From: Syntrophomonadaceae bacterium
Lineage (GTDB): Bacteria > Bacillota > Dethiobacteria > DTU022
Direction of reading: 5' to 3'
NCBI GenBank assembly: GCA_007119965.1
Contig: SKOR01000044.1
Coordinates: 8,270-72,269, forward strand
DNA: 64,000 nt
The notes beneath the pieces are model-generated. The model ran no database searches. It was not told the DNA's origin and saw nothing but the letters and a program-made list of their open reading frames with translations. Shown piece after piece: positions 7,540 to 63,957 of the stretch. How positions within the stretch are numbered: the first letter of the stretch is position 1; the number at the start of each line of letters is the position of its first letter. Position numbers and translations under genes: made by a program.

Positions 7540-8403
7540 CTATCCAAGGCAGCCCAAAATATGATTGCGCAGCTGCTTATAAGCCAGCGCCCCCGTTGTG
7601 TGTCCCTTACTGATAGTTTTTACAGGGCACTCTCCGTATGAATCCCTCTGCAGGCTGTACCTGACTAACTGGTCGTGTGCGGCCAGGAGGGGGAATACAT
7701 TACTGCTGTCCCTGTCCGCAAAGCCCTTTTCAAAGTTCAGCACAGCTTCAATTGCGGACGGGTTATTTTTTGCTTCCGGCGCAGTTGCCCTGCTGTATAC
7801 CGAATAAAGATAAGCATCGTGCATGGCCAACCCTGCCAGCAGTGGCGTATAATAGTCGGCGCTGTTATAGTGAATATGGTGGAGGTTGGTAATGAAACCG
7901 CCGAGGCTTGTCCCGGCCACAATAATTTCACCGACGCCTTTACTCCTGTTTTGCTGCACTAAGTGCTCGATCAGGCGGACAGAAACGGCCAGCATTGCTA
8001 CGACATTGGACAGGGTGCGGATACCCTGCTGAAAATCTTTCATAGACCGGTGAAATGGGGCCCTGACCAGATAAAGGTTCGCGGGGATATTTTCTTTTTT
8101 ATAAGGAAATATCCGGTTGAAGCCGTAATCAAAGGGGGTTTCGCTGGCGCCGTGATGATAGATAACAGAGGGGTGGTTCTCATCAATCCAATGGGCCAGG
8201 CGAAAAGCAGTATTCAGCTCGCCTGCCAGGGTGCCGGCTAATAATTCGTAGTCTCCTTCACCTGTAACCCGGGGGAATTCAAGCGAAATGTTCTCCAGGT
8301 TTACAGCAACACTTTCAGACTCAATACCTTCCCGAAAATACTTGGGCATGAATTTAGCCCCCAGGCCTACAGCTGCATTATCAATAATTCCATGAATGCT
8401 CAC
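7540..8403 (-). CDS. alpha/beta-hydrolase fold protein (GxSxG 'GTSLGG' nucleophile elbow)
   Basis: The 287-aa product has 'IIVAGTSLGGFITN' with downstream His/Asp candidates. It has no signal peptide. Confidence 0.6.
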   Translation of the reverse strand: MSIHGIIDNAAVGLGAKFMPKYFREGIESESVAVNLENISLEFPRVTGEGDYELLAGTLAGELNTAFRLAHWIDENHPSVIYHHGASETPFDYGFNRIFPYKKENIPANLYLVRAPFHRSMKDFQQGIRTLSNVVAMLAVSVRLIEHLVQQNRSKGVGEIIVAGTSLGGFITNLHHIHYNSADYYTPLLAGLAMHDAYLYSVYSRATAPEAKNNPSAIEAVLNFEKGFADRDSSNVFPLLAAHDQLVRYSLQRDSYGECPVKTISKGHTTGALAYKQLRNHILGCLG

Positions 8404-11349: not shown

Positions 11350-11380
11350 TCGGACAGACTAGTTATGGAGGTAGTCTTCG

Positions 11381-13198: not shown

Positions 13199-13392
13199 GG
13201 CACTCCGTTTATTGGTTTAATCCACCTGTATCTGCTCAGCCAACCTGCAGCTCCAGATCCTTTTGCAGGCGTGGGCAGATACATTCACCTGTTTTTTGAT
13301 TTGCCACGATCTTCATCGAAAAGCAGCGAAACTGTGAGCTAAAGTCCGATACGGGCAAGAGGCTTGTGAATATTTTAATTATTCAGGACTAT

Positions 13393-13420
13393 TGACAATT
13401 GTTTGCAGATAAACTATACT
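13393..13420 (+). promoter_or_regulatory. sigma-A-like promoter TTGACA-N16-TATACT
   Basis: TTGACA at 13393-13398 and TATACT at 13415-13420 sit about 60 nt upstream of a GGAGGTGGAG RBS and the ATG at 13482. Confidence 0.5.
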
Positions 13421-13481
13421 TAAGCCATCGGAATCATTTCAGATGTTTCCGAAGACCGTCATTCCCAGGGAGGTGGAGAAA

Positions 13482-13796
13482 ATGTTGGAGATGTGCACCC
13501 AGGAACGTGTTTGCCCTTCATGTAAAGGAAGTTTCTTCCCGGAAGAAAAGGTTGTTCACAAGACCTTATGCGGCGAAGATCTGGTATGTTCTCCGCCGGG
13601 GGAAGGTTACAAGGCGCCGGATTGCAAGACCTACGATTTCTGCTCAGAAAAATGTCTGGAAGAGTATGAGAGCAAGCTGCCAACCTGCGGCGTAGTTCCC
13701 GGTTGGAAACGTTACTTCGGCAGGATCAATAAAGTCGGCAGTTCAAGCGGTATTGCAGGAGCAAGGCCTCATCAACTGCGCAAGTATGGTAAGTAA
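13482..13796 (+). CDS. small Cys-rich zinc-ribbon / TRASH-like protein (104 aa)
   Basis: 'CPSCKG...C...C...YDFCSEKCLEEY' is a TRASH/YHS-like C-x2-C...F-C-S-x2-C arrangement. It has its own promoter and SD, and a rho-independent terminator follows. The overlapping ORFs in other frames (13399..13695 + and 13459..13683 -) are rejected. Confidence 0.55.
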   Translation: MLEMCTQERVCPSCKGSFFPEEKVVHKTLCGEDLVCSPPGEGYKAPDCKTYDFCSEKCLEEYESKLPTCGVVPGWKRYFGRINKVGSSSGIAGARPHQLRKYGK

Positions 13797-13820
13797 AAAG
13801 TAATTTGCCTCTTTATAAAT

Positions 13821-13867
13821 AGCCCGGCCTGAACCAATCTTTTGGAACAGGCCGGGCTATTTATTTG
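13821..13867 (+). terminator. rho-independent terminator
   Basis: The stem is AGCCCGGCCTG ... CAGGCCGGGCT (11 bp), followed by ATTTATTTG. Confidence 0.75.
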
Positions 13868-14318
13868 TTCTGCTTTAATAGCCGGATCTATAACCTTCGC
13901 AGATTTCAAATAAATGGCAGCATTACTTGTTAAAAATTTGCAGCGTGCATGCAAGAGGGTGTTTATTAGAAAAAAATATCAAAAAACCATAATATTAAAA
14001 TGTAACGGAGTTGTAACAGGCAGGTGCTATAATAAAGTTGATAGAAAAGGTAGCAATTATAATATAACAACACGATGCTTGAGAATCGGGCAAAATAACT
14101 TATGAGGGTGGTGCAAAAAACATCAGAAGAGGTCACAGGTATAGCCCGGCCGGACAGTACGCGAAAACATACCGGCCGAAGCATCTCTGACAAGTAGGCA
14201 ATAGTGATGGAATCTGATTATTTGTGATTACTAAAGCCAGGTAAAGTCACTGGTCAAACCGGCTCCACTTTATAAGAAGCAGATCTAATAGTTATTAATA
14301 GCAGGGAGGTTCATAAAC

Positions 14319-16877: not shown

Positions 16878-16969
16878 TCAGTACCGCAAAGTGCTTAAGA
16901 TAAACCGGGTAATCTAGCAGCGGTCGGCTAAAGATAACAGCCGGCCGCTTTCTTATATGGGCGGTTATT

Positions 16970-19717: not shown

Positions 19718-19822
19718 GCTGTCAGGGATTAGTCAGGCCCTCCAGTGGTGAAAGTTCCTATATTTAAACAAACCGGTAACAAGCCTGCGCGTCTTGCAGG
19801 ACTCAACAACCATTGCCAGGAT

Positions 19823-20038
19823 TCAGGTTGCGGTAGGATCCTGTCCCGGCTCAAAATCTTCCGGCGGCAGCGACGGCAGGTTAGTTAAATCTGCGCCGCA
19901 GTAGGGGCAAATCCAGGATCCTTCAATATCCGCTGAATGTGAAGCCCGCTCACAATTGGTGCATATTTTTCGATGCATGAAAACGGACCCTCCGTTCCAT
20001 TCAACCGTTATTGTAAAGCATAAATATAAATAGATCAA
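19823..20038 (-). CDS. small zinc-ribbon protein (71 aa)
   Basis: 'CTNCERASHSADIEGSWICPYCGADL' is a C-x2-C...C-x2-C ribbon. It lies in the divergent intergenic region between the two HD-GYP paralogues. Confidence 0.35.
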   Translation of the reverse strand: MIYLYLCFTITVEWNGGSVFMHRKICTNCERASHSADIEGSWICPYCGADLTNLPSLPPEDFEPGQDPTAT

Positions 20039-20372
20039 TAAATGCTATTTATATCTGCTCAGCTAAGCTGCCAGAAGAGATCCGGCTCACTTTGGAAACG
20101 TAAGCAGCTGCTATTTACTTAAGGGATCACCTGCTGGCTAAAGATTTAGCATTTCTTATATTATATCTTCGACACTCTGCACTGTAACCCTTTTGGGTTT
20201 TATTTATTGCGGTTCCTGCGGCCCGCTGTTAGCATTCACCGCCGGCTGAATCCGGTGTGGCACTTACCGTTCCGGGCGGTTGAGAGCAATTCTATCTATA
20301 TTTATTGAAGGAATCAGATTACCATTGTAGAAAAGGATTTAAAGAAGATTCAGGAGAGGCAAGGTAACTTTT

Positions 20373-21584
20373 ATGAAACAAGAGCATTCAGGAATCACCA
20401 GTCGGATAACTTTATATTATTTTGTCCTGGCCAACCTTTATATTTATGTTTCAGACCAGCTGTTGTTTATGTATGTTACCGATCCTGCCATACTCGTTCG
20501 CTGGCAAACCTATAAAGGGTGGATCTATATAGCAGTGACAACCCTGTTACTCTATATTCTGTTAAAAACCCAGATCAAGAAACTACTCTCAGAAGTGGAG
20601 GAACGTAAGAAGGCTGAAGCTGCTGAAAGGGCCTCGGCAATTCACTGGCAAAAAACATTTGATGCCAGCGCAGATGCAATATGCCTTGTAGATCGCAGCA
20701 AAAAAATTCTGCGCGCTAATGCTGCGCTGGCTAACCTGGCAGGTCAGGATGTTGAAGAAATAATCGGAAAAAACTGTTGTGACACTGTGCACAAAGGGGA
20801 AGGTGAATTTCCGGATTGCCCGCTTCCGGATACGGGCAACTTGCAGTCCCGTGAAGAGACTGAAGTTCAAATAGAAGACCGCTGGTATCACATCAGTATA
20901 GATCCGGTCATGGATGAAAAAAACAGGCTGCAAAACATGGTACATATAATGCGTGATATTACACAACGGAAACAAATGGAGGCCAACCTTCAGCAGGTCA
21001 ACCAGGACCTTCTGCAGGCGTACGATGCTACAATTGAAGGCTGGTCCAGGGCTCTCGACCTGCGTGATCATGATACGGAAGGCCACAGCAAGCGTGTAAC
21101 TGAAGAAACAGTATACCTGGCTGCAGTACATGGGGTCCCGGAGCCTGAATTGGTCCATATCCGCCGCGGGGCACTGCTGCATGATATCGGCAAAGTGGGT
21201 ATCCCTGACTCCATTTTGCATAAAACCGGTAAATTAAATCCCAATGAATGGAAAATTATGCGTGAACACCCGAAACTTGCCTATGATCTGCTGGCCCCGA
21301 TCGATTACCTGCAGCAGGCTTTGGAAATACCCTACTGCCACCATGAAAAATGGGACGGCAGCGGCTACCCCCGCGGCCTGAAAGGGGAAGAGATTCCCCT
21401 GGCAGCGCGTATCTTTGCCGTGATTGATGTTTTTGACGCCCTGACCAGTGATCGTCCGTATCGACCGGCCTGGAACCGTAAAGCGGCCCTGAAACATATC
21501 CTGAACGAAAGCGGCAGGCATTTTGACCCACAAATTGTAAAATTGTTCCTTGAGCTTGTTGATCCTGGCAGGGATGGCACCTAA
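20373..21584 (+). CDS. membrane-anchored PAS-HD-GYP c-di-GMP phosphodiesterase (paralogue of 16970..19717)
   Basis: It has two N-terminal TM helices and a PAS domain. The C-terminal roughly 190-aa HD-GYP domain is nearly identical to that of the upstream gene ('EGWSRALDLRDH[DE]TEGHSKRVTE...HHEKWDGSGYPRGLKGEEIPLAARIF'). Confidence 0.88.
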   Translation: MKQEHSGITSRITLYYFVLANLYIYVSDQLLFMYVTDPAILVRWQTYKGWIYIAVTTLLLYILLKTQIKKLLSEVEERKKAEAAERASAIHWQKTFDASADAICLVDRSKKILRANAALANLAGQDVEEIIGKNCCDTVHKGEGEFPDCPLPDTGNLQSREETEVQIEDRWYHISIDPVMDEKNRLQNMVHIMRDITQRKQMEANLQQVNQDLLQAYDATIEGWSRALDLRDHDTEGHSKRVTEETVYLAAVHGVPEPELVHIRRGALLHDIGKVGIPDSILHKTGKLNPNEWKIMREHPKLAYDLLAPIDYLQQALEIPYCHHEKWDGSGYPRGLKGEEIPLAARIFAVIDVFDALTSDRPYRPAWNRKAALKHILNESGRHFDPQIVKLFLELVDPGRDGT

Positions 21585-34937: not shown

Positions 34938-35426
34938 TCAGAAGAACAAAAGATCAACAGCGTGGGCGATAAGCCCGGCCAGGATGCAAAAAAGAAACCC
35001 CAGGGCCATCCGCAATGCGGTGAATCTGATGCCTAAGAAGCTGCTTTCAAAAGGTATTTTTGAGAGGCCCAGGTAGGTCCATCCGACAAGCAGCGCCACG
35101 GTTGTCCCGAGGCCGGCGCCGGCATGGTAGATGGTAGCTATGATCGGGTAGGAAGCATAAGGCCCGAAAGCCATCAGCATTCCGCCAAAAGTGCCGAGCA
35201 TAATTCCAGTAAATCCGGCTTCCTGGGCCAGCCAGCGTCTGATAAATTCTTCCGGGATTATAACTTCCAGCAGGCCGGCCAGCAGCATGGCCAGGAGAAT
35301 AACCGGCAGGGCAAGAGTAAGCTGCCTGAAGCTGCTTTTTAAGCCGGCCCAGTGCCTGCCGCTCCGCAAATTGATCATAAAAAGGATTACGGCCAGGATT
35401 AAAAAAACTATAGTCGGTATTGTCAT
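34938..35426 (-). CDS. predicted permease, C-terminal half-subunit (DUF318/UPF0718-like two-component membrane permease)
   Basis: It has 4-5 TM helices. 'FGGMLMAFGPYASYPI' is homologous to 'AGGLFPGGPYIFYPF' in the upstream subunit. It overlaps the upstream gene by 4 nt. Confidence 0.55.
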   Translation of the reverse strand: MTIPTIVFLILAVILFMINLRSGRHWAGLKSSFRQLTLALPVILLAMLLAGLLEVIIPEEFIRRWLAQEAGFTGIMLGTFGGMLMAFGPYASYPIIATIYHAGAGLGTTVALLVGWTYLGLSKIPFESSFLGIRFTALRMALGFLFCILAGLIAHAVDLLFF

Positions 35427-35971
35427 TGCCGGCCGCCCTTCTCCCGGTTTTCGCCGCTAAATCCATCAGGTAGAAAGCGCCTGATGAGCAAACCCATGAC
35501 AAATGGGAAGGGAAGGGTAATGATATTTCTTAAGAGAGCCAGGCCAGGGGTGGTCAGGCTGATTTCCAGGGGCAGGCGGGTAAAGTCATAGTTCTGTTTG
35601 CCGACTACGAATGAAAAAATCAGGTAGAATGGAATACTTTTATCTTTAAACCCGGCCAGGAAAGGGTAGAAGATATATGGACCGCCCGGGAAGAGGCCGC
35701 CAGCGATGGAACTCATGGCGATACTCTTGCTGCCTGAATACTTATCCAACCACTGTTTGATCATCTCCGAAGAAATCAGTACCTGCAGCTGGCCGATCAC
35801 GATAAAGGCGACAATTATAAGCAGGAAGGCCCGCATTGCCGTCCGGCCGGCCTGGGCCAGGCCTTCAGCAACAAGCCCGGTTCCCCCAAGAGAATAGACT
35901 GCCACTAAGACAAGCAGCACGGCTGTTAACAGGATAAAGGCAGTTTTTTTCACTAAGCGCCCGGCCTCCAA
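35423..35971 (-). CDS. predicted permease, N-terminal half-subunit (DUF318/UPF0718-like)
   Basis: It is the translationally coupled partner of 34938..35426 and shares the internal-repeat motif. Confidence 0.55.
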   Translation of the reverse strand: MEAGRLVKKTAFILLTAVLLVLVAVYSLGGTGLVAEGLAQAGRTAMRAFLLIIVAFIVIGQLQVLISSEMIKQWLDKYSGSKSIAMSSIAGGLFPGGPYIFYPFLAGFKDKSIPFYLIFSFVVGKQNYDFTRLPLEISLTTPGLALLRNIITLPFPFVMGLLIRRFLPDGFSGENREKGGRQ

Positions 35972-37732: not shown

Positions 37733-39604
37733 ATGAGTTATAACGGAAAAATACTGAAGGTTAACCTTTCATCAGCGGAAGTAGAGATTGAAAAAAAGGA
37801 GGAAGATTTTTACCGGCGCTATTTCGGCGGTCACGGAATCGGCCTGTATTACCTTTTGAATGAATCCGGGGAAGAAACCGATCCCCTCGGGCCGGACAAC
37901 CCCCTGGTATTTGCTCCCGGCCTTTTAACCGGTCAAAGGATCCCGGCCGTACCCCGCTACATTGTCATGGCAAAATCACCGCTGACCAATGCGCTGGGTA
38001 AGTCGGAAGCCGGAGGTTGGTGGGGGCCCGAGTTAAAAAAAGCCGGCTTTGATGCAATTGTGATTACCGGGGCATCGCCGAAACCGGTTTACCTCTGGAT
38101 TAAGGACGGCCAGGTGGAAATCAGGGATGCGACCCACCTTTGGGGCCGTGAAACCGGGGAAACGCAGGATGGAATCCGGGAGGAATTGGATGACAAACGG
38201 ATCCAGGTAGCCCAGATTGGCCCTGCCGGGGAAAACCAGGTCCTCTACGCCAATATTGTCAACAACCTGGCTCACTTTAACGGGCGAAACGGCCTTGGCG
38301 CCGTGATGGGTGCCAAGAATCTCAAGGCCATAGCAGTGCGCGGAACGGCAGCCCCGGAAGCAGAAAACGCTGAGCAGTTAAAAGAAATATTTAGCTGGGC
38401 TGTCGATAATATCAGTGAGCACCCCCTCGGCTCCATGCTCCACAAACATGGCACCCCGGGAGGAATAAAGACGGTCAACGCCCAGGGCGGCCTGCCGACA
38501 AACAACTTCGCACTCGGAGTCTGTGATGATGCCGAAGAGCTTGCCTCAGAGCAGTACAGCCTGAAGCCAAAAGGTTGTTACGCCTGTCCGGTGGTGTGCA
38601 AGAGAGTGGTGGAAATTAATGAGGGCGAAATAAAAGTTGACAGGAGATATGGTGGCCCGGAATATGAGACCCTGGCGGCTATCGGTTCAAACTGCGGCAT
38701 TAGCGATCTGAAGATAGTAGCCAAGGCTAACGAATTGTGCAACCGTTATACCCTGGATACCATCTCGCTTGGCATGACCATTTCTTTCGCCATGAGGTGT
38801 TTCGAAGAAGGCATTATCGGTACTGAAGATACTGACGGCCTGGAGCTTAAGTTTGGCAATAAAGAAGTTATTCTGCCCCTGGTTGAGAAAATTGCCCGGC
38901 GGGAAGGTTTTGGTGACTTGCTTTCCCGGGGAAGCAGGCGGGCGGCCGAAGTATTCGGCCCTGAAAGCGAGAAGTTCCTGGTCGAAGTAAAGGGCCAGGA
39001 AGCGCCCATGCACGATCCGCGGATAAAAAGCGGTCTCGGACTGCAGTATGCCCTTTCGGTTAACGGTGCCGATCACTGGTATGCCCAGCATGATCCTTTC
39101 TTTGCAACTGCCGATGGTTTTGGCGTCATAGAAATGTCGGCTCTCGGCATCACGGAACCGGTTGAACCGCTTGATACCGGCGCCTCCAAGGTCAGGATGA
39201 TTTTTTATACCAGCCTCCTCAACAGCGCTTACGATGTGCTCGGGGTATGCATGTTTGGCTATGTCGCCCGCAGCCTGATTCCCCTGGACAAACTTGCCGC
39301 TGCTGTGAAAGCGGCAACAGGTTGGAACACAAGCTGGTGGGAAATGATCAAGGCCGGGGAAAGGGCCCTGGCCATGGCCCGGGAGTATAACCGCCGGCAG
39401 GGTTTGGCAGCCGCCGATGACAGGCTGCCCCGGTTATTCTACAGTTTTCTTGAAAAAGGGCCGTTTGGTGGAAAGATAACCCTGGAAAAAGAACAGTTTG
39501 AAGCGGCGGTGGCTTTATACTACGGTATGGCCGGTTGGACTGCTGAAGGCGGAGTCACTGAAAGCAAGCTTGAAGAGTTGGGACTTGCCTGGCTTAATCA
39601 GTAG
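37733..39604 (+). CDS. aor: tungsten-containing aldehyde:ferredoxin oxidoreductase (AOR family)
   Basis: The 623-aa product has the N-terminal AFOR_N domain ('GKILKVNLSS', 'GGHGIGLYYL'). 'CYACPVVCKR' is a Cys cluster for the 4Fe-4S centre. The C-terminal AFOR_C domain is present. Confidence 0.9.
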   Translation: MSYNGKILKVNLSSAEVEIEKKEEDFYRRYFGGHGIGLYYLLNESGEETDPLGPDNPLVFAPGLLTGQRIPAVPRYIVMAKSPLTNALGKSEAGGWWGPELKKAGFDAIVITGASPKPVYLWIKDGQVEIRDATHLWGRETGETQDGIREELDDKRIQVAQIGPAGENQVLYANIVNNLAHFNGRNGLGAVMGAKNLKAIAVRGTAAPEAENAEQLKEIFSWAVDNISEHPLGSMLHKHGTPGGIKTVNAQGGLPTNNFALGVCDDAEELASEQYSLKPKGCYACPVVCKRVVEINEGEIKVDRRYGGPEYETLAAIGSNCGISDLKIVAKANELCNRYTLDTISLGMTISFAMRCFEEGIIGTEDTDGLELKFGNKEVILPLVEKIARREGFGDLLSRGSRRAAEVFGPESEKFLVEVKGQEAPMHDPRIKSGLGLQYALSVNGADHWYAQHDPFFATADGFGVIEMSALGITEPVEPLDTGASKVRMIFYTSLLNSAYDVLGVCMFGYVARSLIPLDKLAAAVKAATGWNTSWWEMIKAGERALAMAREYNRRQGLAAADDRLPRLFYSFLEKGPFGGKITLEKEQFEAAVALYYGMAGWTAEGGVTESKLEELGLAWLNQ

Positions 39605-47588: not shown

Positions 47589-48122
47589 TTATACTGCAGT
47601 AACCGGCATGGCCTGCATCGAGTATTTTACACTGTCGTTCTCAACCGATCTGATGCCTATCTCTTTGAAGCCTTGCCTGGCATGGAAATCAAGAGATCGC
47701 TTGTTGGGCGGTTCAATCATGATCTCGCAGGTGATTACCGGGATGTTTTCTTTGCGGGCATAGTCAACAATATCCCTGTATAAGAGCGTGCCGATTTTGA
47801 GCCCCTGGTAAGGCCTGTCGACAACTATCCTGTCGATGTATAAAAACCTCTCGTAACGTTCTGAAAACCAGCGGTAGTTATCATTTACGTAAGGGACATG
47901 ATCTTTCATGGCGAGGATAAAAGCAGCGACATGCCCATTGACTTCAGCCACCCTGTGGTAATCTGACAGAGAATCGAGGTGGCGGGCTCTGTCTATGTCC
48001 ATAGCGCTGGTGTACTGAATTTCACAGGCATTCAGATAAATAATCCTGTTGTAGTCCGAATCTGCAGCATCCCGGATAAGAGTCTTGGGCAAATCCGGGC
48101 CCTGGTTGCTTAAGTTTTTCAA
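47589..48122 (-). CDS. GNAT-family N-acetyltransferase
   Basis: The 177-aa product has 'IVVDRPYQGLKIGTLLY' and the overall GNAT pattern. Confidence 0.7.
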   Translation of the reverse strand: MKNLSNQGPDLPKTLIRDAADSDYNRIIYLNACEIQYTSAMDIDRARHLDSLSDYHRVAEVNGHVAAFILAMKDHVPYVNDNYRWFSERYERFLYIDRIVVDRPYQGLKIGTLLYRDIVDYARKENIPVITCEIMIEPPNKRSLDFHARQGFKEIGIRSVENDSVKYSMQAMPVTAV

Positions 48123-48399
48123 AAGAATAGTCCCTCCTTTTTATAGCCATTATATATTTATATGTGACAAAGGTAAAATGCTTTAACAGCTGTTCTGCTG
48201 CACAGCAGTTGACTGAGCGCCAGTCTGAATGGCGTCTTGAAAAGCGATTACACCTATTGACACGATACCCCCCGTGGGTTTATAATTCATTTCAAGCGCA
48301 TATCCATAACTCTATTAGTCAGGCTTTTTGAGCCTGCGGCGCTCGCAATTAAGCGCAGTTTCCCAAACTATTGAAGAACCTGATTGAGGAGTCCATTAA

Positions 48400-48735
48400 A
48401 TGACTGAAAAAGGCTTGGCCAATGGGAATGAAGAAAACGATGAAACCTGTCACCACGCAGGTCACGGCAGTTACCAGGGAAATAAAAAAAAGATCCTTGA
48501 CGGCTTGAGCCGGACAGAAGGCCAGGTCAGGGGTATAAAGCGCATGGTTGAGGAAGAAAGGTATTGTGTCGATGTGCTGAACCAGATCGCTGCATCCAGG
48601 ATGGCGCTGGCCCGCCTGGCCATGTTAATTCTGGAAGATCACACCAAGGGTTGTGTCAGTACGGCTATCCTCGAAAAAGAGAGTGGAGAAAGTACCATAG
48701 AAGAACTGATGGAAGTGATTAAGAGGCTTATGTAA
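48400..48735 (+). CDS. csoR: CsoR/RcnR-family copper-sensing transcriptional repressor with His-rich N-terminal extension
   Basis: 'LSRTEGQVRGIKRMVEEERYCVDVLNQIAA' and '...HTKGC' carry the Cys-His-Cys Cu(I) ligand pattern. The N-terminus is 'CHHAGHGS'. Confidence 0.85.
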   Translation: MTEKGLANGNEENDETCHHAGHGSYQGNKKKILDGLSRTEGQVRGIKRMVEEERYCVDVLNQIAASRMALARLAMLILEDHTKGCVSTAILEKESGESTIEELMEVIKRLM

Positions 48736-48800
48736 GCTTTACAGTTTGAAGCGGCCGGATGCCGGCTTGTAATTTATTTGGCAGCAATTTAAGTTTTACA

Positions 48801-48850
48801 TAGAATTAGAAATGCTGAGGCAGTTTTATGCCTCAGCATTTCTAATTCTA
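48801..48850. terminator. perfect 21-bp inverted repeat hairpin (bidirectional terminator candidate) between csoR and the convergent cop operon
   Basis: TAGAATTAGAAATGCTGAGGC - AGTTTTAT - GCCTCAGCATTTCTAATTCTA. Confidence 0.6.
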
Positions 48851-48951
48851 TTATCCCTTCAGCACTACAAACAGATTTCAACAAATTACTCATTGCATAA
48901 TATTCCTGCGAAAAAGCTGCAGCCTGAATCTATACTGAATGTTTCAGCAGA

Positions 48952-49176
48952 CTAGTGGCAGCTCGGCTTTTGTCCTTTAAATTCTTCAGCATTGGATTCA
49001 GCCATACGGTAGAGAAAACGCTGCCACCAGTTTTTGCCAATATATTTTTCAGGATCGCCTTGAAATTGTTCCCGGCAACCCTGACAGCAAAATTCATATG
49101 TTATTCCATTATAAGAGTAAGTTGCATTAACCTTTTCTTCTGATAAAGTATTCTTGCATACAGGATCATAATACAT
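48952..49176 (-). CDS. YHS/TRASH-domain metal-binding protein
   Basis: 'DPVCKNTL...YSYNGITYEFCCQGCREQF' matches the YHS pattern. It is the last gene of the copA-copZ operon. Confidence 0.75.
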   Translation of the reverse strand: MYYDPVCKNTLSEEKVNATYSYNGITYEFCCQGCREQFQGDPEKYIGKNWWQRFLYRMAESNAEEFKGQKPSCH

Positions 49177-49232
49177 GGTTAGCTCTCCTTACTGACAAGC
49201 GATTCACTGCGGCCCGCTATGCGGGATCATCC

Positions 49233-49472
49233 CTAATGTTCAGACCTGGTTCCCTCATAACCGGCATCATTGACTGCCTGGATCAGGTTCTCTACATTAG
49301 TAATAGCAGTGTCGTATTCAAGGTAAGCCCGTTCATTGTTTAGATCAACCTGGACAGAAGTAACTCCCCGGGCCTCCTGCAGCGCCTTTTCGACGTGCTG
49401 GACACAGTGGTTACAACTCATTCCGGATATATTGATCACCGTCTTTTCCAGGTTACTTGATTGACCATTCAT
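49233..49472 (-). CDS. copZ: copper chaperone CopZ (HMA domain)
   Basis: 'GMSCNHCVQHVEKAL' is the MxCxxC motif. The product is 79 aa. Confidence 0.88.
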   Translation of the reverse strand: MNGQSSNLEKTVINISGMSCNHCVQHVEKALQEARGVTSVQVDLNNERAYLEYDTAITNVENLIQAVNDAGYEGTRSEH

Positions 49473-49501
49473 TATTATCTGCCTCCTCTGTCAAGCCATG
49501 A

Positions 49502-49522
49502 ATATACCCCTATTGGGTATAT
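49502..49522. promoter_or_regulatory. CsoR-type operator ATATACCC-N5-GGGTATAT upstream of copZ
   Basis: 8-bp GC-cored inverted arms with a 5-bp spacer (CTATT). It is the same architecture as the site upstream of copA. Confidence 0.6.
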
Positions 49523-49671
49523 TATAACAGTAATTTTGCAACTAGGCAACCCGGGCTGGTTAATTCATAACCGGTTGCGGTCATCAGCGGCAGCAGTCCG
49601 GAAAAGTTCAGGGCGAACCTGCAGGCTGCACGTCCCGTGGTCAGCGCGCAGATGCGGGGCCCTGATTTGTT

Positions 49672-52218
49672 TTATAAATTGTTACCGGTTTGCGCCGGTA
49701 TTTGATTCTCAGTCTCCGGTGCCTGGTGCCTGCGATCCAGGTAATCAGGTTTAATTCTGACTTTTTTAAGTAGCGTAGAGTTTAACACTACACTGATGGA
49801 ACTTGTAGCCATGGCGGCTGCCCCGATCATCGGGTGCAGTAACCCGAAGAAAGCTGCCGGGATAGCCAGGCCGTTATAAAACCAGGCCCAGAAGTAGTTT
49901 TGTTTGATCTTGCCAAAAGTGGCATTTGACAGCTTGATGGCCGCGATTACTGCGCTTAATTCGCCCCGGACCAGGGTAATATCTGCCGCTTCAATGGCAA
50001 TATCGGTGCCGGTTCCGATCGCAATCCCAACATTGGCCTGTTTTAAAGCGGGCGCATCGTTAATGCCGTCCCCAACCATAGCCACTGTCCCGTATTCCTC
50101 CTGCAGCTTCTTGATTTCGTCTACTTTTCCGTCGGGAAGCACTTCGGCCAGGACTCTGCTCATGCCAACCTTCCGGGCAATGGCGCTTGCTGTTCTGCTG
50201 TTGTCCCCGGTTATCATTGCTGTTCTGAATCCCATTTTTTCCAGCTCGGCAATCGCCTGTTCGGAATCTTCCTTTAGGGTATCGGCAACGGCAACAATCC
50301 CGGCCATTTCACCGCCTATGGCGATTAACATCGCAGTTTTTGCTTCGTCTTCGAGTTTTTCCATTTCATTTACATACTGTTGATATACTATTCCCTTTGC
50401 CTCCATCAGTTTGCGGCTTCCGATCAGGACCTGCTTATCGTTCACCGCTCCTTCAACCCCTTTGCCGGTTACAGATGTAAAATCTGCAACCTTTTGCAGG
50501 GTAAGGCCTTCAGCTTTGGCCTTTTCCACTATGGCTGCTCCGAGGGGATGTTCCGAAGCAGCTTCCAGGCTGCCGCCGTAAAACAGTAAATCGGATCCAG
50601 TGTAGCCGTTTACAGCAGAAATGTCGGTAACCTCCGGTTTTCCCTTGGTGATAGTCCCGGTTTTATCGAAGGCGATGATTTTAACATTCTTAATCGTCTG
50701 GATCGCCTCTCCTTTTCTGATTAAAATTCCATTTTCCGCGCCCAGACCACCACCGACCATGATAGCCGTTGGAGTAGCCAGGCCCAGTGCACAGGGGCAG
50801 GAGATGACCAGTACTGCGATTGTCGCCAGCAGGGCCAGGGAAAACTGCGGTAAATCAACGTTGCTCCACGGGAAGTTAAAGAACTCTACAATCGGAATAA
50901 AAAATCCCGGGAAAAGCGTCCACAACACGAAGGCGAGAACTGCGACCAGAATAACTGCCGGCACGAAAAAACCGGTGACCTTGTCCGCAAATTCCTGGAT
51001 CGGCACCTTGGAACCCTGGCTTTCCTCGACCATCTTGATCACCCGCGAGAGGAAGGTATCTTTGCCGATCTTGGTTGCCTTTACCTGAAGCATGCCTTGC
51101 TTGTTGATTGTAGAGCCGATTACTTCATCCCCGCTTGACCTCTCCACAGGCAGCGATTCGCCGGTAGCCATCGACTCGTCTATGCTGCTCCTGCCCTCGA
51201 CGACTACACCGTCGGTGGGAACCTTTTCACCGGGGCGGACAATCATAACCTGGCCAACTTCCAGCTCTTCGATCGGGACTTCGACTTCCTCCCCGTCGAT
51301 AATCACTCTTGCTTTCTTTGCTTCCATTTCCAGAAGCTTTTTAATCGCCTGGGAAGCTTTACCCTTGGCTTTCGCTTCAAGGAACCTTCCAACCAGGTGC
51401 AGGGTCATAATCGAGGCGGCCATCTCAATGAAAGATGTGATCGGAAACCATATAACAGCCAGGTTGAGCAGGTATGGCAGCAGTGAGCCCATCGATACCA
51501 GGGTATCCATATTCGGGCTGAGGGCTTTCACCGATTTAAAACTGCCCACGTGTGTTTCCCAGCCGGCAAAGAATATTACCGGAAAAGCAAGGACAAAAAT
51601 AATTGGCAAATAGTAAGGAATTTCTACCAGGAACATATGAACCATCATCAGGATCATAATCGGAGCGGCAAAGGATATGGCAAACCACATCCGCCGGGCA
51701 GCATGGGCCATTTTTGCCATTTCGTGATCCTGGATTTCCTTTCCCTTGCTGTCGACATCCGAACTCTCTATTACTTCGTAGCCGCTATCCCTGATAGTTT
51801 TCTTTAGTTTTACCTGGCTGGTTTCAGAGGGGTTATATTTAACAGTGACTTTTTCCGAGGCAAAATTAACTGTGGCTTCAGCAACCCCCGGCTTGCTGTT
51901 CAGGCTTTTTTCAATTCTCTGTGCACAGCTGCTGCAGGTCATGCCGGAAACAGTAAAAGTTATTGTCTTAAGTTCACTGCCGGTTAATTTTCCTTCGTAA
52001 CCGCTCTTTTTTACCACATCGAGCAGGGTGGACTCGTCAATCAAGGCAGAATCAAATTCAACATAGGCTTTCTCCATTGGAAAGTTTACCTGTGCTGACA
52101 GAACTCCCTCAGTCTTTTGCAGCGCCTTTTCAACTCTCTGGGAACAAGCGGTGCAGGTCATGCCGGATAAAGCAATAACCGTTTTTTCCGGTTCTGTTTT
52201 AGTTTCCGGGTTACTCAT
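49672..52218 (-). CDS. copA: copper-translocating P1B-1 ATPase CopA with two N-terminal HMA domains
   Basis: Two MxCxxC motifs ('[15 protein letters not shown]', '[15 protein letters not shown]') are present, plus the TM motif '[11 protein letters not shown]' (CPC), 'DKTGTIT' and '[10 protein letters not shown]'. Confidence 0.93.
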
Positions 52219-53780: not shown

Positions 53781-55115
53781 ATTAATAATCAAACAGACCC
53801 AAATAAAACAGTATTAAGCTGGCCCCTGGCCGGTGACCCCGGTTCCTGGCGTTCAACGCTCTACGGGCTGCAATGGTTTGCCTTTGCCACTGCTAATGTT
53901 GCAGTGCTCCCGGTTTTTTTAGGAACTCAACTGGGGCTGGACCAGGCCGGCATCGCCGATTACGCCCAGAGAATGTTTTTCTTTGTCGGGTTGGCTTCCC
54001 TTCTCCAGGTAACTTTTGGTCACCGCCTGCCAATTATTGAAGGCCCTGCTGCTCCCTGGTGGGCAGTTATTGTCAGCCTGGCTGGGATTGCCACGGCCAT
54101 CGGTAAACCCCTTGAATTGGTGCGCACCGACCTGGTCGGGGCGATGCTGCTCTGCGGAGCGCTACTGGTGGTGCTCGGTTTTACCGGTATAGTTGGCCGG
54201 GTTATGAAACTTTTTACACCGCCGGTCACCGGGTGTGTCCTCATTCTACTATGCTTACAGTTAAGCGGGACCTTTGTCAGCGGTATCCTGGGGGCAAGCG
54301 CTGTAGATAATGGTTTTAATTATGCCCCGGTATTGATCAGTGCAGTGGTTATTGCCACGATAGTCATGCTTTCCATGAAAGCTCCTCCCCTGTTGAGGAG
54401 CATTAACGTGCTGATTGGTCTTGGCGTGGGATGGGCTCTCTATGCCTTATTCGTAAGTGAACCTGCAGAAGCGATTGAGCCGGCCCAGATTGTTCAACTG
54501 CCCCGGCTTTTTTCCTGGGGCTGGCCAACCCTTGATCCCGGCGTTACTATTACCGGGGTCATAATTTCATTAATCATCCTCGCCAATCTTCTGGCCAGTA
54601 TCGCAGCAATGTCTAAAGCTACCGATAAGCCCATGGAAGCAAAGGATTACAACAGGGCCGTTGTATTTAACGGGGTAAGCAACTTGCTGGCCGGAATCGG
54701 TGCATCAGTAGGCACGGTACCCTTTGCTGCTTCGACCGGCCTGGTAAAAATATCAGGGGTGGCATCGCGCAAACCGTTTTTTATCTTCTGCCTGTTGATG
54801 ATAGCAACCGGGTTTTTCCCGCAGGTAGGCGCATTCCTGGCCAGGATACCCCAGCCTGTCGGTTATGCCGTTTTGCTGGCCGCTTTTACCCAGATCTTAA
54901 TTGTCGGGCTCCAGGAACTGAAAAAACTGAACCTCGATCAGCGCGATTCCTTTGTAATCGGCCTGACCATTCTTGTCGGGGCCGGCGTGGCATCTCTGCC
55001 CGACGCCGCCCTGGTCGGCCTTCCCGATCTGGCACGCTACATCTTTGGAAACGCCTTGATTGTAGGGATAATTATTTGTTTGCTCATGGAACATGTTATT
55101 ATCCCCCGCAAATAG
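53781..55115 (+). CDS. NCS2-family nucleobase (xanthine/uracil-type) permease; N-terminus extended upstream of track start, probable non-canonical (ATT/ATC) initiation
   Basis: It is a polytopic membrane protein. The frame is open from 53754 and encodes the conserved N-terminal 'LYGLQWFAFATANVAVLPVFLG' (an NCS2 GLQ motif) upstream of the GTG at 53904. The strong SD GGAAGGAG lies at 53764-53771. There is no ATG/GTG/TTG between the SD and the conserved segment. Confidence 0.55.
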   Translation: MNNQTDPNKTVLSWPLAGDPGSWRSTLYGLQWFAFATANVAVLPVFLGTQLGLDQAGIADYAQRMFFFVGLASLLQVTFGHRLPIIEGPAAPWWAVIVSLAGIATAIGKPLELVRTDLVGAMLLCGALLVVLGFTGIVGRVMKLFTPPVTGCVLILLCLQLSGTFVSGILGASAVDNGFNYAPVLISAVVIATIVMLSMKAPPLLRSINVLIGLGVGWALYALFVSEPAEAIEPAQIVQLPRLFSWGWPTLDPGVTITGVIISLIILANLLASIAAMSKATDKPMEAKDYNRAVVFNGVSNLLAGIGASVGTVPFAASTGLVKISGVASRKPFFIFCLLMIATGFFPQVGAFLARIPQPVGYAVLLAAFTQILIVGLQELKKLNLDQRDSFVIGLTILVGAGVASLPDAALVGLPDLARYIFGNALIVGIIICLLMEHVIIPRK

Positions 55116-55119: not shown

Positions 55120-55170
55120 AAAAAAGGGGCTCAGAGGTGCCTTAAACACCTCTGAGCCCTTCTTTCTTCC
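55120..55170. terminator. bidirectional rho-independent terminator between convergent permease and mtbB
   Basis: AAAAAA, then GGGCTCAGAGGTG-CCTTAAA-CACCTCTGAGCCC, then TTCTTTCTT. Confidence 0.8.
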
Positions 55171-55230: not shown

Positions 55231-56619
55231 TTAAAGGCCTGCCCTTTCCTTGAAACGTTCTACAGAGTTAATCTTGATATCGAGGGCCTTGGCAATATTG
55301 AACTTTGCTTCAATACCCTTGGGGAAGTTGTTCAGGTCAAACGAACGCCCCATACCCTTATCAGCCCTAATATCATACATCTTATCTGAATCGCTTAGAT
55401 CGATGGGGTCGACCCCCAGTTTTTCCGCTACATACTTTTTGGCTTCGTCGATCTTCATGCTCTTAGCGAGCTGTATCCGCAGAACCAGATCTCCGGCTGT
55501 GCGAATGCCACTCATGCAGGAAGAAACTCCGTGAGCCACTTCGAGGCTAAAAGTATCGCCTACCCCTATCTATAACCCGTCGGCCTTGCCGATTTCAATC
55601 AGCGCTTTATCGGCCCTGGTTACAGCGTCGATCGGCGGAATCTCGCTGGTCGGGATACCGCCGACACCCATGCCGACGTTAACGTGCACCGGGATATCTG
55701 CTGCCTCGGTGCAGGCTTTCACAAAGGTTACAGCGCGGGCAATGCCCCAGGGAAAGGACATCTTGGTGTTTGTATTGATTACGGCACCGAAAATGTTGGC
55801 CCCCGCTTTTTCTGCCAGCTTGACCTGTTTGTGCGGGTAAAGTCCGGCTACCCTTGTCCCGTCGTATTCAATTTTACCGTGCATCCCTAACACAAATTCA
55901 CCGGCGGCACCCATTTCAACACCAAAATCAGGGTATTTTTCCTTAATTTTTTCGGTAGCCAGCAGTCCGGCGAGAAAATCTGCATCACCGGAAGCTCCGC
56001 AGGTGTCGAGGTTAATGCCGTCAGCACCGGCCGCATACATTTCACCGGCCACGAAAACTATATCGCGGACAGCATGTTCAACCGCTTCTTCCTGGGCGGC
56101 TCGTGATTCATCAATCTTTCCCAACGGCAGTAGCTCTGACCAGTTTTCTACCGGACCGTCAGGCTTTGTGTAGAGGCCAAGATTCGGCATAGAACCGTAA
56201 AGAACCGGCATAACTGCGTTAAGCTGGGCAAGCTCCATGACCGGGGTTTCATTGTGAATAATCTGCTTTACAGCCTTGTAGCTGTAGTCCATGTTGCCGA
56301 TATCGACAGAGTCGGCACCTAAAATCTTTTCACTGACCAATACAGCCATCGAACGTTCCATGGCAATATTGGCATGATAGGTCATCTTACAGCTGCCCGA
56401 GTCGGAAGTGCTCACCACTTCCCGGCCTCGCTTGACACCTACAATGTTTCCCGGCATCGTAATGATCTCGAAGAGGTAATCCATCTCTTCTTCGGTCAAC
56501 TCAGGAATTTTACCGCGTTTAGCGGCATCTTCCACGCCTTTTTTTATTTCATCCTTAATTTCTTCCGCGGACATATAGACGCCGGAACCGTCGCCCATCC
56601 GTGTAAAAAATTCACCCAA
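55231..56619 (-). CDS. mtbB: dimethylamine:corrinoid methyltransferase MtbB with in-frame UAG (pyrrolysine codon) at 55570..55572
   Basis: The TTG start at 56619 lies behind AAGGAGGAG. The 349 codons up to UAG contain 'MPNLGLYTKPDGP', 'GADGINLDT', 'VLGMHGKIEYDG', 'VAGLYPH' and 'AGANIFGAV'. These match what I recall of MtbB ('MPNMGLYY', 'LAGLWPH', 'AGANVFGPV'). After the UAG the same frame continues for 112 sense codons ('IGVGDTFSLEVAHGVSSCMSGIRTAGDLVLRIQLAKSMKIDEAKKYVAEKLGVD...'), with no SD and only a GTG. The total of 462 codons matches the roughly 467-aa MtbB, which has pyrrolysine near 356. Confidence 0.8.
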
Positions 56620-56924
56620 AAATATCTCCTCCTTTACATTAGTTTAGGACTGGCCTAGCTAAGTATAATAGATGGCAGGGCAAACTTCAATCTATTTTAG
56701 CACCAGTAATTCTAAAGGGACAGGGTTGCGCGAGGAATGCCTGAATTAAAAATTTACCGGGTCAGCTGCCCTAAATAACAGATTGTTTTTTGCGCCGGGG
56801 GGGGCGCCGTAAATATATAACAATAAACCGCCTGCTGCCGCAGGGGAGTCAATAAAAACCTGTCTTGCACCTCTTATCCGGGTTGTCACACTGTTGGAAT
56901 GACGGCCCCTGCTTCTAACCTACA

Positions 56925-58097
56925 TTAAATCCGGTCACTGGCCACCGCAGAAAATTCCTGTTTAATTCTCTTCTGCAGTTCTATGTCTTTTAAGATCTTA
57001 TGTCCGGTTATAGCCATCGCCTGGCCTACGGTAAGCATGATGTTGTATGCTTCTTCACTATCGCAGAGCATGCTGAATTTGCGGGTGTGCCCGGGCACCC
57101 ATTGATCGGTAATGGCAACCATCGGGCGGATAGAAGGTGTGACCCGGCTGACATTTCCCATGTCAATTGAATCCATGCCTTCATCATGTGGGGAATCCAG
57201 GGCATAACCTGTTTCCCTGAGGCTCTCTGCAAAAAGATCTGCCATTACCCTGTTGCTGACCATCGCTTCGTAAGGAAAGCCTGATTCGGTAACTTCAAGG
57301 CTGGTGCCTGTTGCTATTGCCGCTCCCCTGGCGCAGGCGACTACCTTTTCAATAACTTCACCAAGATAGCGGCTGTCGCGGGCCCTGATAATAAAATCGG
57401 CCGCAGCCCGATCGGGGATAATATTGGGGGCCAGTCCGCCTTCGGAAACTATACCATGAATGCGGACATCATCTTTCAGGTGCTGCCTCATGGCATTAAT
57501 ACTGTTAAACGTCTGGATCACCCCGTCGAGTGCGTTTCTACCTTCCCACGGATCAGTTGAAGCATGTACACTTCGGCCGTGGAAGATAAACCTGTAATCC
57601 CGGCAGGCCAGTGATTCGACATGAATGCTGGTAGAACAGCCGGGATGAAACATCATCGCGGCATCCACGTCATCAAAAACACCCGAATTGACCAGCACTA
57701 CTTTGCCGCCCTCATCTTCTTCATTAGGGGTGCCGATAATTGATACCCGGCCCGGCATATCCCCCAGGCTTGCCGCCAGGGCGACACCCGCAGCCACCCC
57801 GGAGATGCCAATCAGGTTATGGCCGCAGCCATGGCCTATTTCCGGTAAAGCATCATACTCGGAACAGTAGCCGATATGGAAACCTTCCCCGCCATAACTG
57901 GCCATAAAAGCTGTTTTTAAGCCGCCGATGCCCCGCCAAACTTTAAACCCTTTATCCTCAAGGTATGTTGTGATCAGATCTAAAGCGAAAAATTCCTGCC
58001 CGCCAACTTCCGGGTTATTATAGATTGCCCGGGCCATTTCCACCAGTTTAACCTTTTCCTCATCGATCGTCTGCTGAATAGACGCTAATTCACTCAC
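56925..58097 (-). CDS. M20-family amidohydrolase/peptidase (AbgB/hippurate-hydrolase-like)
   Basis: The 390-aa product has 'GHGCGHNLIG', 'GTPNEEDEGGK' and an 'FHPG' metal-ligand pattern. Confidence 0.75.
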   Translation of the reverse strand: MSELASIQQTIDEEKVKLVEMARAIYNNPEVGGQEFFALDLITTYLEDKGFKVWRGIGGLKTAFMASYGGEGFHIGYCSEYDALPEIGHGCGHNLIGISGVAAGVALAASLGDMPGRVSIIGTPNEEDEGGKVVLVNSGVFDDVDAAMMFHPGCSTSIHVESLACRDYRFIFHGRSVHASTDPWEGRNALDGVIQTFNSINAMRQHLKDDVRIHGIVSEGGLAPNIIPDRAAADFIIRARDSRYLGEVIEKVVACARGAAIATGTSLEVTESGFPYEAMVSNRVMADLFAESLRETGYALDSPHDEGMDSIDMGNVSRVTPSIRPMVAITDQWVPGHTRKFSMLCDSEEAYNIMLTVGQAMAITGHKILKDIELQKRIKQEFSAVASDRI

Positions 58098-62979: not shown

Positions 62980-63957
62980 TTGAATTTAAAAAGCCTGCGC
63001 AACCCGGACCTCTACCACGGCAGATTGGGTAAGAATTTTTTTGAAGGCTGGTATTTTAAATTGGTCGACAGGGATATGGAACACGCCTTTGCTTTTATTC
63101 CCGGAGTTTTTTTCAGCCCGGACCCGGAACACGACCATGCCTTTATCCAAATAGTGGACGGTATAAAAAAAACATATCGCTATGAGCGTTATCCCAGTAA
63201 AAAGTTTTCAGCTTCCCAAGATATATTTTCCGTTGATATTGCCGGCAGCAGCTTCGGCCGAAGCGGCATTTCATTTAATCCGGACGGTAACGCCGGCAAT
63301 ATCAACGGCGAGCTTGAATTCAGCAACCATCTTGCCTGGCCGGACAGCATTTTAAACCCGGGCAGTATGGGCTTTTACAACTACATCTTAAAGATGCAGT
63401 GTTACAGCCAGGTCTGCGCTATGGATTTTGACTTAAACGGCTCCCTGGAAGTTAACGGACAAATAGTTGATTTCAATGGCGGAAAAGGATACATCGAAAA
63501 AAACTGGGGTTCAGCCTTCCCGTACTCCTGGATCTGGATTCAATGCAACCATTTCCAAAAAGAGCGGGTTTCGTTAAGCTGTTCCCTCGGGCATATCCCG
63601 TTCCTCATTTCCAGCTTCAGGGGTTTCTTAGTAGGCCTTTATATCGGTGGCAGCTTTTATGAATTTACCACAATGAACCGCAGTACAGCAGAAGTGATCC
63701 AAAAGGGAACCGACATAACAATGCATTTAAAAAACAGGCACTGCAGCCTGACTATCGATTGTGAAACCAGCAGCGAAGACTTCATTCTCTTAAACGGCCC
63801 GCGCGGTGATCAAATGGTACCCCTGGTCTATGAAAACCTGCAGGGTCTGGTTCACATTACCCTCAAAGAAAACGCAGGCGGCAGGACAATCTTTTCTGAC
63901 AGCGGCCGCTGCGCCGGGGTTGAATACGGCGGAGAGCAAATGATGGTGCTGGGGTAA
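62980..63957 (+). CDS. tocopherol-cyclase-family protein
   Basis: The N-terminal 'HGRLGKNFFEGWYFKL' resembles the conserved VTE1 'FFEGWYF(R/K)' block. The product is 325 aa. Confidence 0.5.
   Translation: MNLKSLRNPDLYHGRLGKNFFEGWYFKLVDRDMEHAFAFIPGVFFSPDPEHDHAFIQIVDGIKKTYRYERYPSKKFSASQDIFSVDIAGSSFGRSGISFNPDGNAGNINGELEFSNHLAWPDSILNPGSMGFYNYILKMQCYSQVCAMDFDLNGSLEVNGQIVDFNGGKGYIEKNWGSAFPYSWIWIQCNHFQKERVSLSCSLGHIPFLISSFRGFLVGLYIGGSFYEFTTMNRSTAEVIQKGTDITMHLKNRHCSLTIDCETSSEDFILLNGPRGDQMVPLVYENLQGLVHITLKENAGGRTIFSDSGRCAGVEYGGEQMMVLG

Follow-up and report, generated by a model that had tools for sequence, protein, structure and literature searches.

An orphan mtbB gene with an in-frame UAG codon, predicted to encode pyrrolysine, in a Dethiobacter-related soda-lake bacterium

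When two open reading frames (ORFs) lie in the same frame and are separated only by a TAG codon, are they the remains of a broken gene, two genes, or one gene whose UAG is translated as pyrrolysine (Pyl)? The question is raised by a pair of ORFs on the minus strand, at 55231-56619, of a 64,000-nucleotide (nt) stretch of DNA (the window) that resembles mtbB, the gene for dimethylamine:corrinoid methyltransferase (MtbB). The DNA comes from the sediment of Cock Soda Lake, and its uncultured host, a 'Syntrophomonadaceae'/Dethiobacter-related bacterium, is represented by the metagenome-assembled genomes (MAGs) GCA_007128785.1 and GCA_007136415.1. Judging from sequence comparisons, the locus is very probably one intact mtbB gene, with UAG codon 350 decoded as pyrrolysine. 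The gene is full-length, its UAG occupies an invariant Pyl column, the 112 codons that follow are under purifying selection, and a conserved hairpin lies downstream of the UAG. Bacterial Pyl-containing MtbB and the role of Pyl in it have already been established (PMC1976440, PMC6778437, PMC9842639). Below, L-numbers denote homologous loci and P-numbers denote proteins as labelled in this analysis.

The 5' ORF comprises 349 codons (55573-56619, minus strand), begins with a TTG at 56619 and ends in ...GCC GAC GGG TTA TAG, the TAG occupying 55570-55572. Ten in-frame codons after the TAG (ATA GGG GTA GGC GAT ACT TTT AGC CTC GAA, i.e. IGVGDTFSLE) lead to the GTG of a 102-codon ORF (55231..55539). 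The joined frame thus extends for 112 codons past the TAG until a TAA at 55231-55233, so that it contains 462 sense positions before the stop, codon 350 being the TAG. An earlier reading of the DNA made without database searches (the sequence-only reading) had given coordinates and counts for the ORF pair and the TAG, all of which proved correct when we re-read the window. A six-frame scan found several TAG-joined ORF pairs in the window; all except this one are antisense shadows of other genes. From the candidate promoter, its own Shine-Dalgarno sequence and a terminator-like hairpin, mtbB is predicted to be a single-gene transcription unit. The features of this unit are as follows.

55231..56619, minus strand: complete mtbB coding sequence, 462 sense codons including one UAG (predicted Pyl) plus TAA; translation unbroken save for the TAG; matches TIGR02368 and PF09505
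55570..55572, minus strand: in-frame UAG, codon 350, the predicted Pyl codon; TAG at the homologous column in 75/75 loci
55234..55569, minus strand: C-terminal 112 codons, translated only upon UAG read-through; conserved tail under purifying selection
56628..56634, minus strand: Shine-Dalgarno sequence AAGGAGG, 8 nt 5' of the TTG start, read directly from the sequence
56662..56690, minus strand: promoter-like site TTGAAG-17-TATACT upstream of mtbB; consensus scan with 9/12 matches, a pattern match only
55127..55159, minus strand: intrinsic-terminator-like hairpin of 15 base pairs (bp) with a T-run, common to mtbB and the convergent permease gene; makes mtbB a single-gene unit
Across the UAG codon: predicted tryptic junction peptide ADGL-O-IGVGDTFSLEVAHGVSSCMSGIR

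To establish what the joined frame encodes, we compared its 462 amino acids (aa), with the TAG position filled, with protein family profiles. The product matched NCBIfam TIGR02368, an equivalog model named '[dimethylamine--corrinoid protein] Co-methyltransferase' ('dimeth_PyL'), with 496.4 bits (cutoff 369.1), as a single alignment that takes in profile positions 4-464 of 466. Pfam PF09505 was matched with 622 bits over profile positions 2-462 of 463. The sequence-only reading had named the joined product MtbB and would have given this up had homologues aligned to the first 349 aa alone. The name was borne out by these end-to-end matches, and the test by single hidden Markov model alignments that cross the TAG, homologues not being confined to the N-terminal ORF. 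We therefore assign the protein to MtbB on the basis of a score above the equivalog cutoff over the full profile, the UAG at the Pyl column and the conserved region behind the UAG. Public gene calls at this locus list two ORFs of 349 and 94 aa, both of which match PF09505. Nearly all of the best 120 relatives in a collection of 5.8 billion proteins are likewise 349-352 aa long, cut by gene callers at the same place, and comparable mis-splitting of genes has been reported for other Pyl-using genomes (PMC6778437, PMC7593587). Sequence searches found no PDB relative. The AlphaFold model of the full-length homologue P0023 has a predicted local distance difference test score (pLDDT) of 62.7 overall and below 50 after residue 350, in the C-terminal third. 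Its structural matches are generic TIM-barrels only, and the model is too poor around the Pyl site to inform on it.

We then considered whether the TAG itself is conserved. A homologue scan using one genome per species yielded 76 related loci, 75 of which extend to the Pyl column. In every one of these 75, bacterial and archaeal alike, a TAG stands directly after ..DG[L/I] and is followed by a conserved tail of about 110 codons, (I/V/L)G(V/H/T)GD....H......(M/I)(S/G)G(I/M/V)(R/K)(T/A)(A/T)GD(L/M)V.R.... The sources include Bacillota (soda-lake and other members, Desulfosporosinus, Syntrophaceticus, Paradesulfitobacterium and 'Ca. Formimonas warabiya'), Thermoleophilia/Actinomycetota, Aminicenantes and the archaeal Methanomassiliicoccales. 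Beyond the bare presence of a stop codon, nothing speaks for an artefact of sequencing or assembly, or for a mere nonsense mutation in an ordinary gene. Such an explanation is refuted by the recurrence of the TAG in 75/75 loci and by three independent assemblies in which the region is present with 100% identical MtbB halves, namely SKWR01000017.1 (GCA_007128785.1), SLGZ01000101.1 (GCA_007136415.1) and ENA ERZ27301263 contig k141_353912 (262,834 nt); we give it practically no chance. The same three assemblies, together with the conservation of the ten bridging codons, also dispose of a frameshift or sequencing error between 55540 and 55572, which the sequence-only reading had named as a possible refutation.

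The tail behind the TAG evolves as a translated protein segment. It is 76-89% identical to the tails of close relatives. Over 105 codons after the TAG, comparison with 23 relatives (73-92% protein identity) gave non-synonymous differences of 0.05-0.22 and synonymous differences of 0.52-0.81. Where it could be computed, the ratio of non-synonymous to synonymous substitution rates (dN/dS) after the TAG was 0.03-0.15, with synonymous sites near saturation; the N-terminal part gave 0.015-0.06. Low dN/dS at near-saturated synonymous sites indicates that the tail is translated in this clade. The case for read-through of the UAG in the clade, and hence for its probable decoding as Pyl, rests mainly on this conservation of the tail. 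Together with the conserved TAG, this selection on the tail supports the central proposal of the sequence-only reading, a bacterial mtbB whose in-frame UAG is read as pyrrolysine.

Could the UAG instead be read as a canonical amino acid, by a near-cognate or suppressor transfer RNA (tRNA), or could the two halves be separate polypeptides that assemble, with no pyrrolysine involved? A full-length MtbB homologue, P0023 (L094 10001-11401, JADQBM010000005.1; also L095), is 63% identical to the window protein and has at the Pyl column TTG (Leu), one base from TAG, and no stop; its gene is solitary and has no mtbC beside it. Such a non-Pyl MtbB is uncommon in the family; it implies that a residue other than Pyl is structurally tolerable at this position. 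A second protein, P0043, has Q at the Pyl column at the protein level. As for separate halves, gene callers do find the 94-aa ORF in the tail. Against translation by a canonical tRNA, the TAG has not become a sense codon in any of 75 loci over very deep divergence, and its retention is therefore sensible only if the encoded residue cannot be specified otherwise. Moreover, those relatives that have pyl genes in a readable neighbourhood all have a dedicated tRNA(CUA) and/or PylS nearby. Separate halves are contradicted by the 10 codons that bridge the TAG and the earliest possible start, which are conserved and contain no Shine-Dalgarno sequence. We regard both variants as highly improbable, if slightly less so than an artefact.

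Whether the decoding of UAG as pyrrolysine involves a signal in the mRNA has long been debated. We analyzed the mtbB mRNA behind the UAG, where two nested features were mapped.

55473..55572, minus strand: Rfam RF02509 PYLIS_2 (mtbB pyrrolysine insertion sequence, PYLIS), starting at the UAG
55483..55498, minus strand: conserved hairpin core with a 6-bp stem and an AGAU loop (A GCC GG AGAU CU GGU U), 75-90 nt after the U of UAG

The RF02509 match scores 43.3 bits (gathering score 36), covers model positions 1-100 and is the sole Rfam match in the window. A match to the same family was present at the TAG in 18/18 relatives tested, with 43-89 bits. PYLIS_2 derives from the consensus structure predicted for mtbB by Theil Have et al. 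in 2013, and PYLIS is considered non-essential in the literature (PMC3639795). To find out which part of the element is maintained, we counted base pairs in 75 aligned sequences (alignment A1), numbering columns from the U of UAG. The UAG-proximal helix turned out to be weak: pair 11-34 is unpaired in 33/69 sequences, and in the window sequence the inner part of this hairpin was skipped by the match as a local end. The best-supported distal structure is a continuous stem in which columns 75-80 pair with 85-90 and close the AGAU loop; in the window sequence the hairpin extends to 55475-55506 (alignment A1 columns 67-98).

Two pairs of this stem join third positions of codons on both sides. Pair 78-87 occurs as CG (49), GC (6), UA (5), UG (5) and AU (2) and is unpaired in 2 sequences, while pair 75-90 occurs as CG (24), AU (14), UA (14), UG (3) and GC (2) and is unpaired in 12. 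Each of the two is unique, in its pairing level combined with five pair types, among about 445 third-position pairs of the same spacing in the gene. Distal stem cells are paired in 88% of cases, compared with 26-43% when the partner is slid by 1-3 columns, and each of the hairpin pair columns has undergone at least 10-14 changes on a neighbour-joining tree. Nowhere else in the gene is synonymous-codon entropy as low as at codons 375-381 (0.31 in 30 Bacillota sequences, where the mean is 0.80), a value reached in 1/3000 permutations. Within these codons GGA and CTG are invariant in the 30 Bacillota, and GGA is kept in the high-G+C Thermoleophilia too; a comparison of synonymous constraint within Thermoleophilia showed low diversity throughout, so that no local signal is readable there. 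The hairpin is also the centroid structure of the mRNA segment. The folding energy of the whole region after the UAG is not unusual (z = -0.74), and only the local hairpin is distinct. The hairpin is thus kept by compensatory changes at synonymous sites across bacteria and archaea.

What this hairpin does is a different matter. At +75 nt it is too far away to touch a ribosome paused at the UAG, and for this reason we treat a decoding role as hypothetical. One possibility, which we put forward tentatively and consider rather doubtful, is that the AGAU-loop hairpin is a functional cis-element of mtbB mRNA in bacteria and archaea (Bacillota, Actinomycetota, Aminicenantes and Methanomassiliicoccales) that tunes UAG-to-Pyl decoding or a coupled fate of the mRNA. 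In the soda-lake lineage its target would then be an orphan mtbB whose pyl and corrinoid partner genes are dispersed and work in trans. If this were true, the hairpin would be the first covariation-validated recoding signal for pyrrolysine, and abundant Dethiobacter-related acetogens or syntrophs would gain methylamines otherwise ascribed to methanogens. In any case, the covarying hairpin is a concrete candidate in the long debate on an mRNA context signal for Pyl decoding.

Several observations weigh against Pyl decoding of this particular gene copy. The first concerns its neighbourhood. In the window, mtbB is flanked by an M20-family peptidase gene (56925-58097, minus strand) and by the convergent gene of a xanthine/uracil-family permease (53904-55115, plus strand). 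In most close relatives mtbC directly follows mtbB, within about 30 nt of the stop (L002-L004, L006-L009, L011-L016 and L018-L031), but no mtbC lies directly downstream in the window, as is also the case in L001, L005 and L017. The M20-peptidase/permease context was seen in no other locus checked, and the window mtbB could be a translocated spare copy. Second, the 64-kilobase (kb) window and about 4 kb past its end contain no pylT, pylS, pylB, pylC, pylD, corrinoid protein or RamA. Third, the pyl cassette of the host's own genome was not located, since the PylSc candidates that we followed to their contigs all lie in other assemblies. Finally, TAG is a common ordinary stop here. Among 40 window genes, 22 end in TAA, 9 in TAG (22%) and 9 in TGA; two of the TAG-ending genes (6768-7502 and 37733-39604) have an immediate second in-frame stop.

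These data allowed us to reject three broader proposals. A functional unit of M20 peptidase, mtbB and permease is not conserved in any relative. Genome-wide reassignment of TAG is incompatible with the 9/40 genes that end normally in it. Nor were further Pyl genes found in the window, where the mtbB pair is the only genuine TAG-joined one and has the only PYLIS match. With TAG neither reassigned nor avoided, Pyl insertion should compete with termination or be limited to conditions in which the pyl genes are expressed, and a conditionally expanded code in the host is plausible.

The absence of methylamine genes around mtbB admits one more explanation, namely that the gene is a relic: the pyl machinery was lost after the gene had left mtbC, and only a truncated, inactive product of 349 aa is made. 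This would fit an orphan copy with no mtbC, pyl or other methylamine genes nearby, in a neighbourhood without counterpart among the loci checked and in a genome whose pyl genes were not located. It does not fit the state of the gene. The 112 codons after the TAG contain neither a stop nor a frameshift, and in comparison with the closest relatives L001 and L017, which likewise have no adjacent mtbC, dN/dS in the tail is 0.03-0.04 at a synonymous difference (pS) of about 0.65. The TAG, the Shine-Dalgarno sequence, the terminator and the hairpin with its constrained synonymous sites are all intact as well. The loss would need to be very recent, and we consider a relic improbable, though somewhat less so than canonical read-through or separate halves. 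If instead the gene is intact and its UAG decoded as Pyl, it is an 'orphan' that needs partners encoded elsewhere, since no mtbC adjoins it.

The search for these partners in the window was negative by several routes. Scanning about 40 window ORFs revealed no pyl gene, corrinoid (B12-binding) protein, MtbA, RamA or other methylamine methyltransferase, and tblastn of relatives' PylSn, PylSc, PylB, PylC, PylD, MtbC and RamA against the window gave no match. ARAGORN reported 0 tRNAs and a pylT pattern 0 matches in the window. Outside it, PylSc candidates for the host (P0148, P0192, P0160, P0168, P0158, P0222, P0219, P0237 and P0275) were chosen by source pattern, acidity and similarity to Desulfitibacter PylS. 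The candidate assemblies that hold at least 8 kb have a tetranucleotide correlation (r) to the window of at most 0.65. Tetranucleotide composition sets the window clade apart from the other loci compared: for most close-relative loci r is 0.86-0.96, with L003 (0.60) as an exception.

Related loci nevertheless show how such partners may be arranged. The more distant relatives L025-L029, L031 and L034-L038 have pylT and/or pyl genes no more than 10 kb from mtbB, and pylT adjoins mtbB in L025, L026, L028, L029, L031, L034, L035, L038 and L131. Locus L028, from a Syntrophaceticus-like MAG, has two copies of tRNA-Pyl on one 17-kb contig (2907-2978 and 17339-17410). Dispersed arrangements exist too, as pylSc and mtbB of MAG DAHVVW01 are on different contigs. 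PylSc matches include proteins of Zhaonella formicivorans (P0211) and Desulfitibacter sp. BRH_c19 (P0174); the MtbB match from BRH_c19 is P0035 (76%), and another MtbB match, P0031, shows 77% identity.

Closer to the host, the soda-lake MAG SLPH01 carries a window-type mtbB (L070, 83% identical). A second contig of this MAG (L032 974-5486, SLPH01000121.1) encodes an mttB with TAG (974-2452), an mtbB with TAG (2553-3938) and a second mttB-family gene (4005-5486). The latter is a non-Pyl paralogue: it scores above the TIGR02369 cutoff and has a PYLIS_3 match, with ATT (Ile) at the Pyl column. We also surveyed 80 metagenomic PylSc loci, two of which (L131 and L171) fall in or near the composition range of the window clade. 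L131 (r = 0.875) contains a sigma-54 activator gene, mttB(TAG), mtbB(TAG) and mtbC, then directly pylT, pylSc, pylB, pylC, pylD and pylSn. Its MttB, MtbB and MtbC are 77-87% identical to the proteins of L032/L033, which come from MAGs SLPH01 and JAXHVH01 that also carry window-type mtbB. L171 (r = 0.841), from a Kulunda soda-lake sediment metagenome (SL_3KL_010_SEDDRAFT_10013089), has a solitary pylSc at 4262-5095. This pylSc sits between a GH130-like gene and a glycerophosphodiester phosphodiesterase gene, with no pylBCD within 7 kb. An unannotated NCBI record contains the L171 protein as well, and a relative at 71% bears the label 'Dethiobacteria bacterium'. The pattern in L171 suggests that pyl genes are dispersed in soda-lake bacteria, mirroring the orphan mtbB. 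On the strength of these related loci we infer that a pyl cassette and corrinoid partners are encoded elsewhere in the host genome.

How, then, would the gene work? A pylT/pylSc-pylSn/pylBCD cassette elsewhere in the genome would supply Pyl-tRNA(CUA): PylS would charge tRNA(CUA) with pyrrolysine made by PylBCD, and codon 350 would be decoded (PMC9842639, PMC2933860). Because TAG is still an ordinary stop in the host, Pyl-tRNA(CUA) would have to compete with release factor 1 (RF1) at the UAG. Full-length MtbB would rely on its Pyl residue for the binding and activation of dimethylamine and would methylate, at Co(I), a corrinoid protein (PMC9842639, PMC2933860), which is presumably encoded elsewhere because no mtbC adjoins the window mtbB. 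From there the methyl group could go onward to tetrahydrofolate and the Wood-Ljungdahl pathway reported for soda-lake Dethiobacter-related bacteria (PMC6146748).

Having weighed the alternatives, we compared the locus, read as a Pyl-encoding mtbB, with known systems. Like methanogen MtbB (TIGR02368/PF09505), the window protein matches the profile end to end above the equivalog cutoff, at a length of about 462-467 aa. The UAG aligns with that of the archaeal homologues L036, L053 and L057 (49-51% identical), and the Rfam mtbB PYLIS element is present in the window gene as well. Unlike in methanogens, the host is bacterial, and the gene is a lone unit without the mtbC, mtbA and pyl genes that are usual beside archaeal copies (PMC3941956). 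In addition, ordinary genes of the window frequently end in TAG, and the UAG-proximal Rfam hairpin is poorly matched. With respect to RF02509 itself, the match above the gathering score starts at the UAG and the distal hairpin overlaps an Rfam helix; however, the window stem includes pair 78-87, which is left unpaired in the Rfam consensus.

Among bacteria, a Pyl-containing MtbB was reported in 2007 for the delta-1 symbiont of Olavius algarvensis (PMC1976440). The MtbB of 'Candidatus Formimonas warabiya' DCMF (L022; PMC6778437) is 75% identical in the N-terminal part and 66% in the tail, with the TAG in register, and gene callers split both genes alike (PMC6778437). In contrast to the window, which lacks any pyl gene, the genomes of the Olavius symbiont and DCMF have a demonstrated pylTScSnBCD set. 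Furthermore, mtbC directly follows mtbB in DCMF and not in the window, and the lineage differs, being soda-lake Dethiobacter-related (PMC6146748). Bacterial Pyl-containing MttB (Acetohalobium arabaticum and Bilophila, PMC7593587; mechanism in PMC9842639) provides a further parallel as a methylamine:corrinoid methyltransferase with UAG-encoded Pyl in organisms where UAG is otherwise a stop. MttB, however, belongs to a non-homologous family (PF06253 rather than PF09505) and has another substrate.

The novelty is modest and lies in the lineage (soda-lake Dethiobacter-related bacteria), in the orphan arrangement and in the covariation that supports the distal hairpin. What is known of pyrrolysine biology is left unchanged. 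The closest relatives include SKW*/SLG* accessions and 'CSSed' names, which belong to the Cock Soda Lake sediment MAGs; one of these relatives, L001, is 'Syntrophomonadaceae bacterium CSSed162cmB_188' (92-93% identity). Dethiobacter-related 'Syntrophomonadaceae' are reported to make up over 5% of the sequences recovered from each of five soda-lake sediment metagenomes, and the Cock Soda Lake study described more than 50 Dethiobacter-related MAGs with Wood-Ljungdahl genes, pyrrolysine in them being unmentioned (PMC6146748). Our search found no literature linking pyrrolysine with Dethiobacter or with soda-lake Syntrophomonadaceae. The mtbB gene points to an abundant uncultured soda-lake group as a probable user of pyrrolysine and consumer of dimethylamine, and thus as a possible rival of methylotrophic methanogens for the methylamines of soda lakes. 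Pyl use in these MAGs is invisible to routine annotation because public calls split the gene into 349 + 94 aa.

The remainder of the window contains several features that are separate from mtbB. A dense signalling cluster at 10225-21584 includes four HD-GYP-type (HD_5) proteins; among its members are a PAS-GGDEF-HD protein (11381-13198) and a 915-aa MEDS-GAF-GAF-HD protein (16970-19717), MEDS being the methanogen/methylotroph DcmR sensory domain. Two ORFs, at 14319-16877 on the plus strand (852 aa) and at 7540-8403 on the minus strand (287 aa), have no Pfam match at E <= 1e-4. The N-terminal half of the ArsP_1 permease profile is matched twice at 34938-35971 on the minus strand, by neighbouring ORFs of 182 and 162 aa that overlap slightly; they represent either a two-part permease or a duplicated half. 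The region 48122-52218, for which the gene calls of L077/L078 were also used, is a copper-handling cluster: besides a CopA-type P-type ATPase (49672-52218) that carries two HMA domains, it encodes a small HMA protein, a YHS/TRASH protein and a CsoR-like repressor. Finally, an ORF at 62980-63957 on the plus strand matches the tocopherol cyclase family (PF14249, 110 bits) and lies beside a spermidine-synthase-like ORF and a 4Fe-4S ORF, an odd combination for anaerobic Bacillota.

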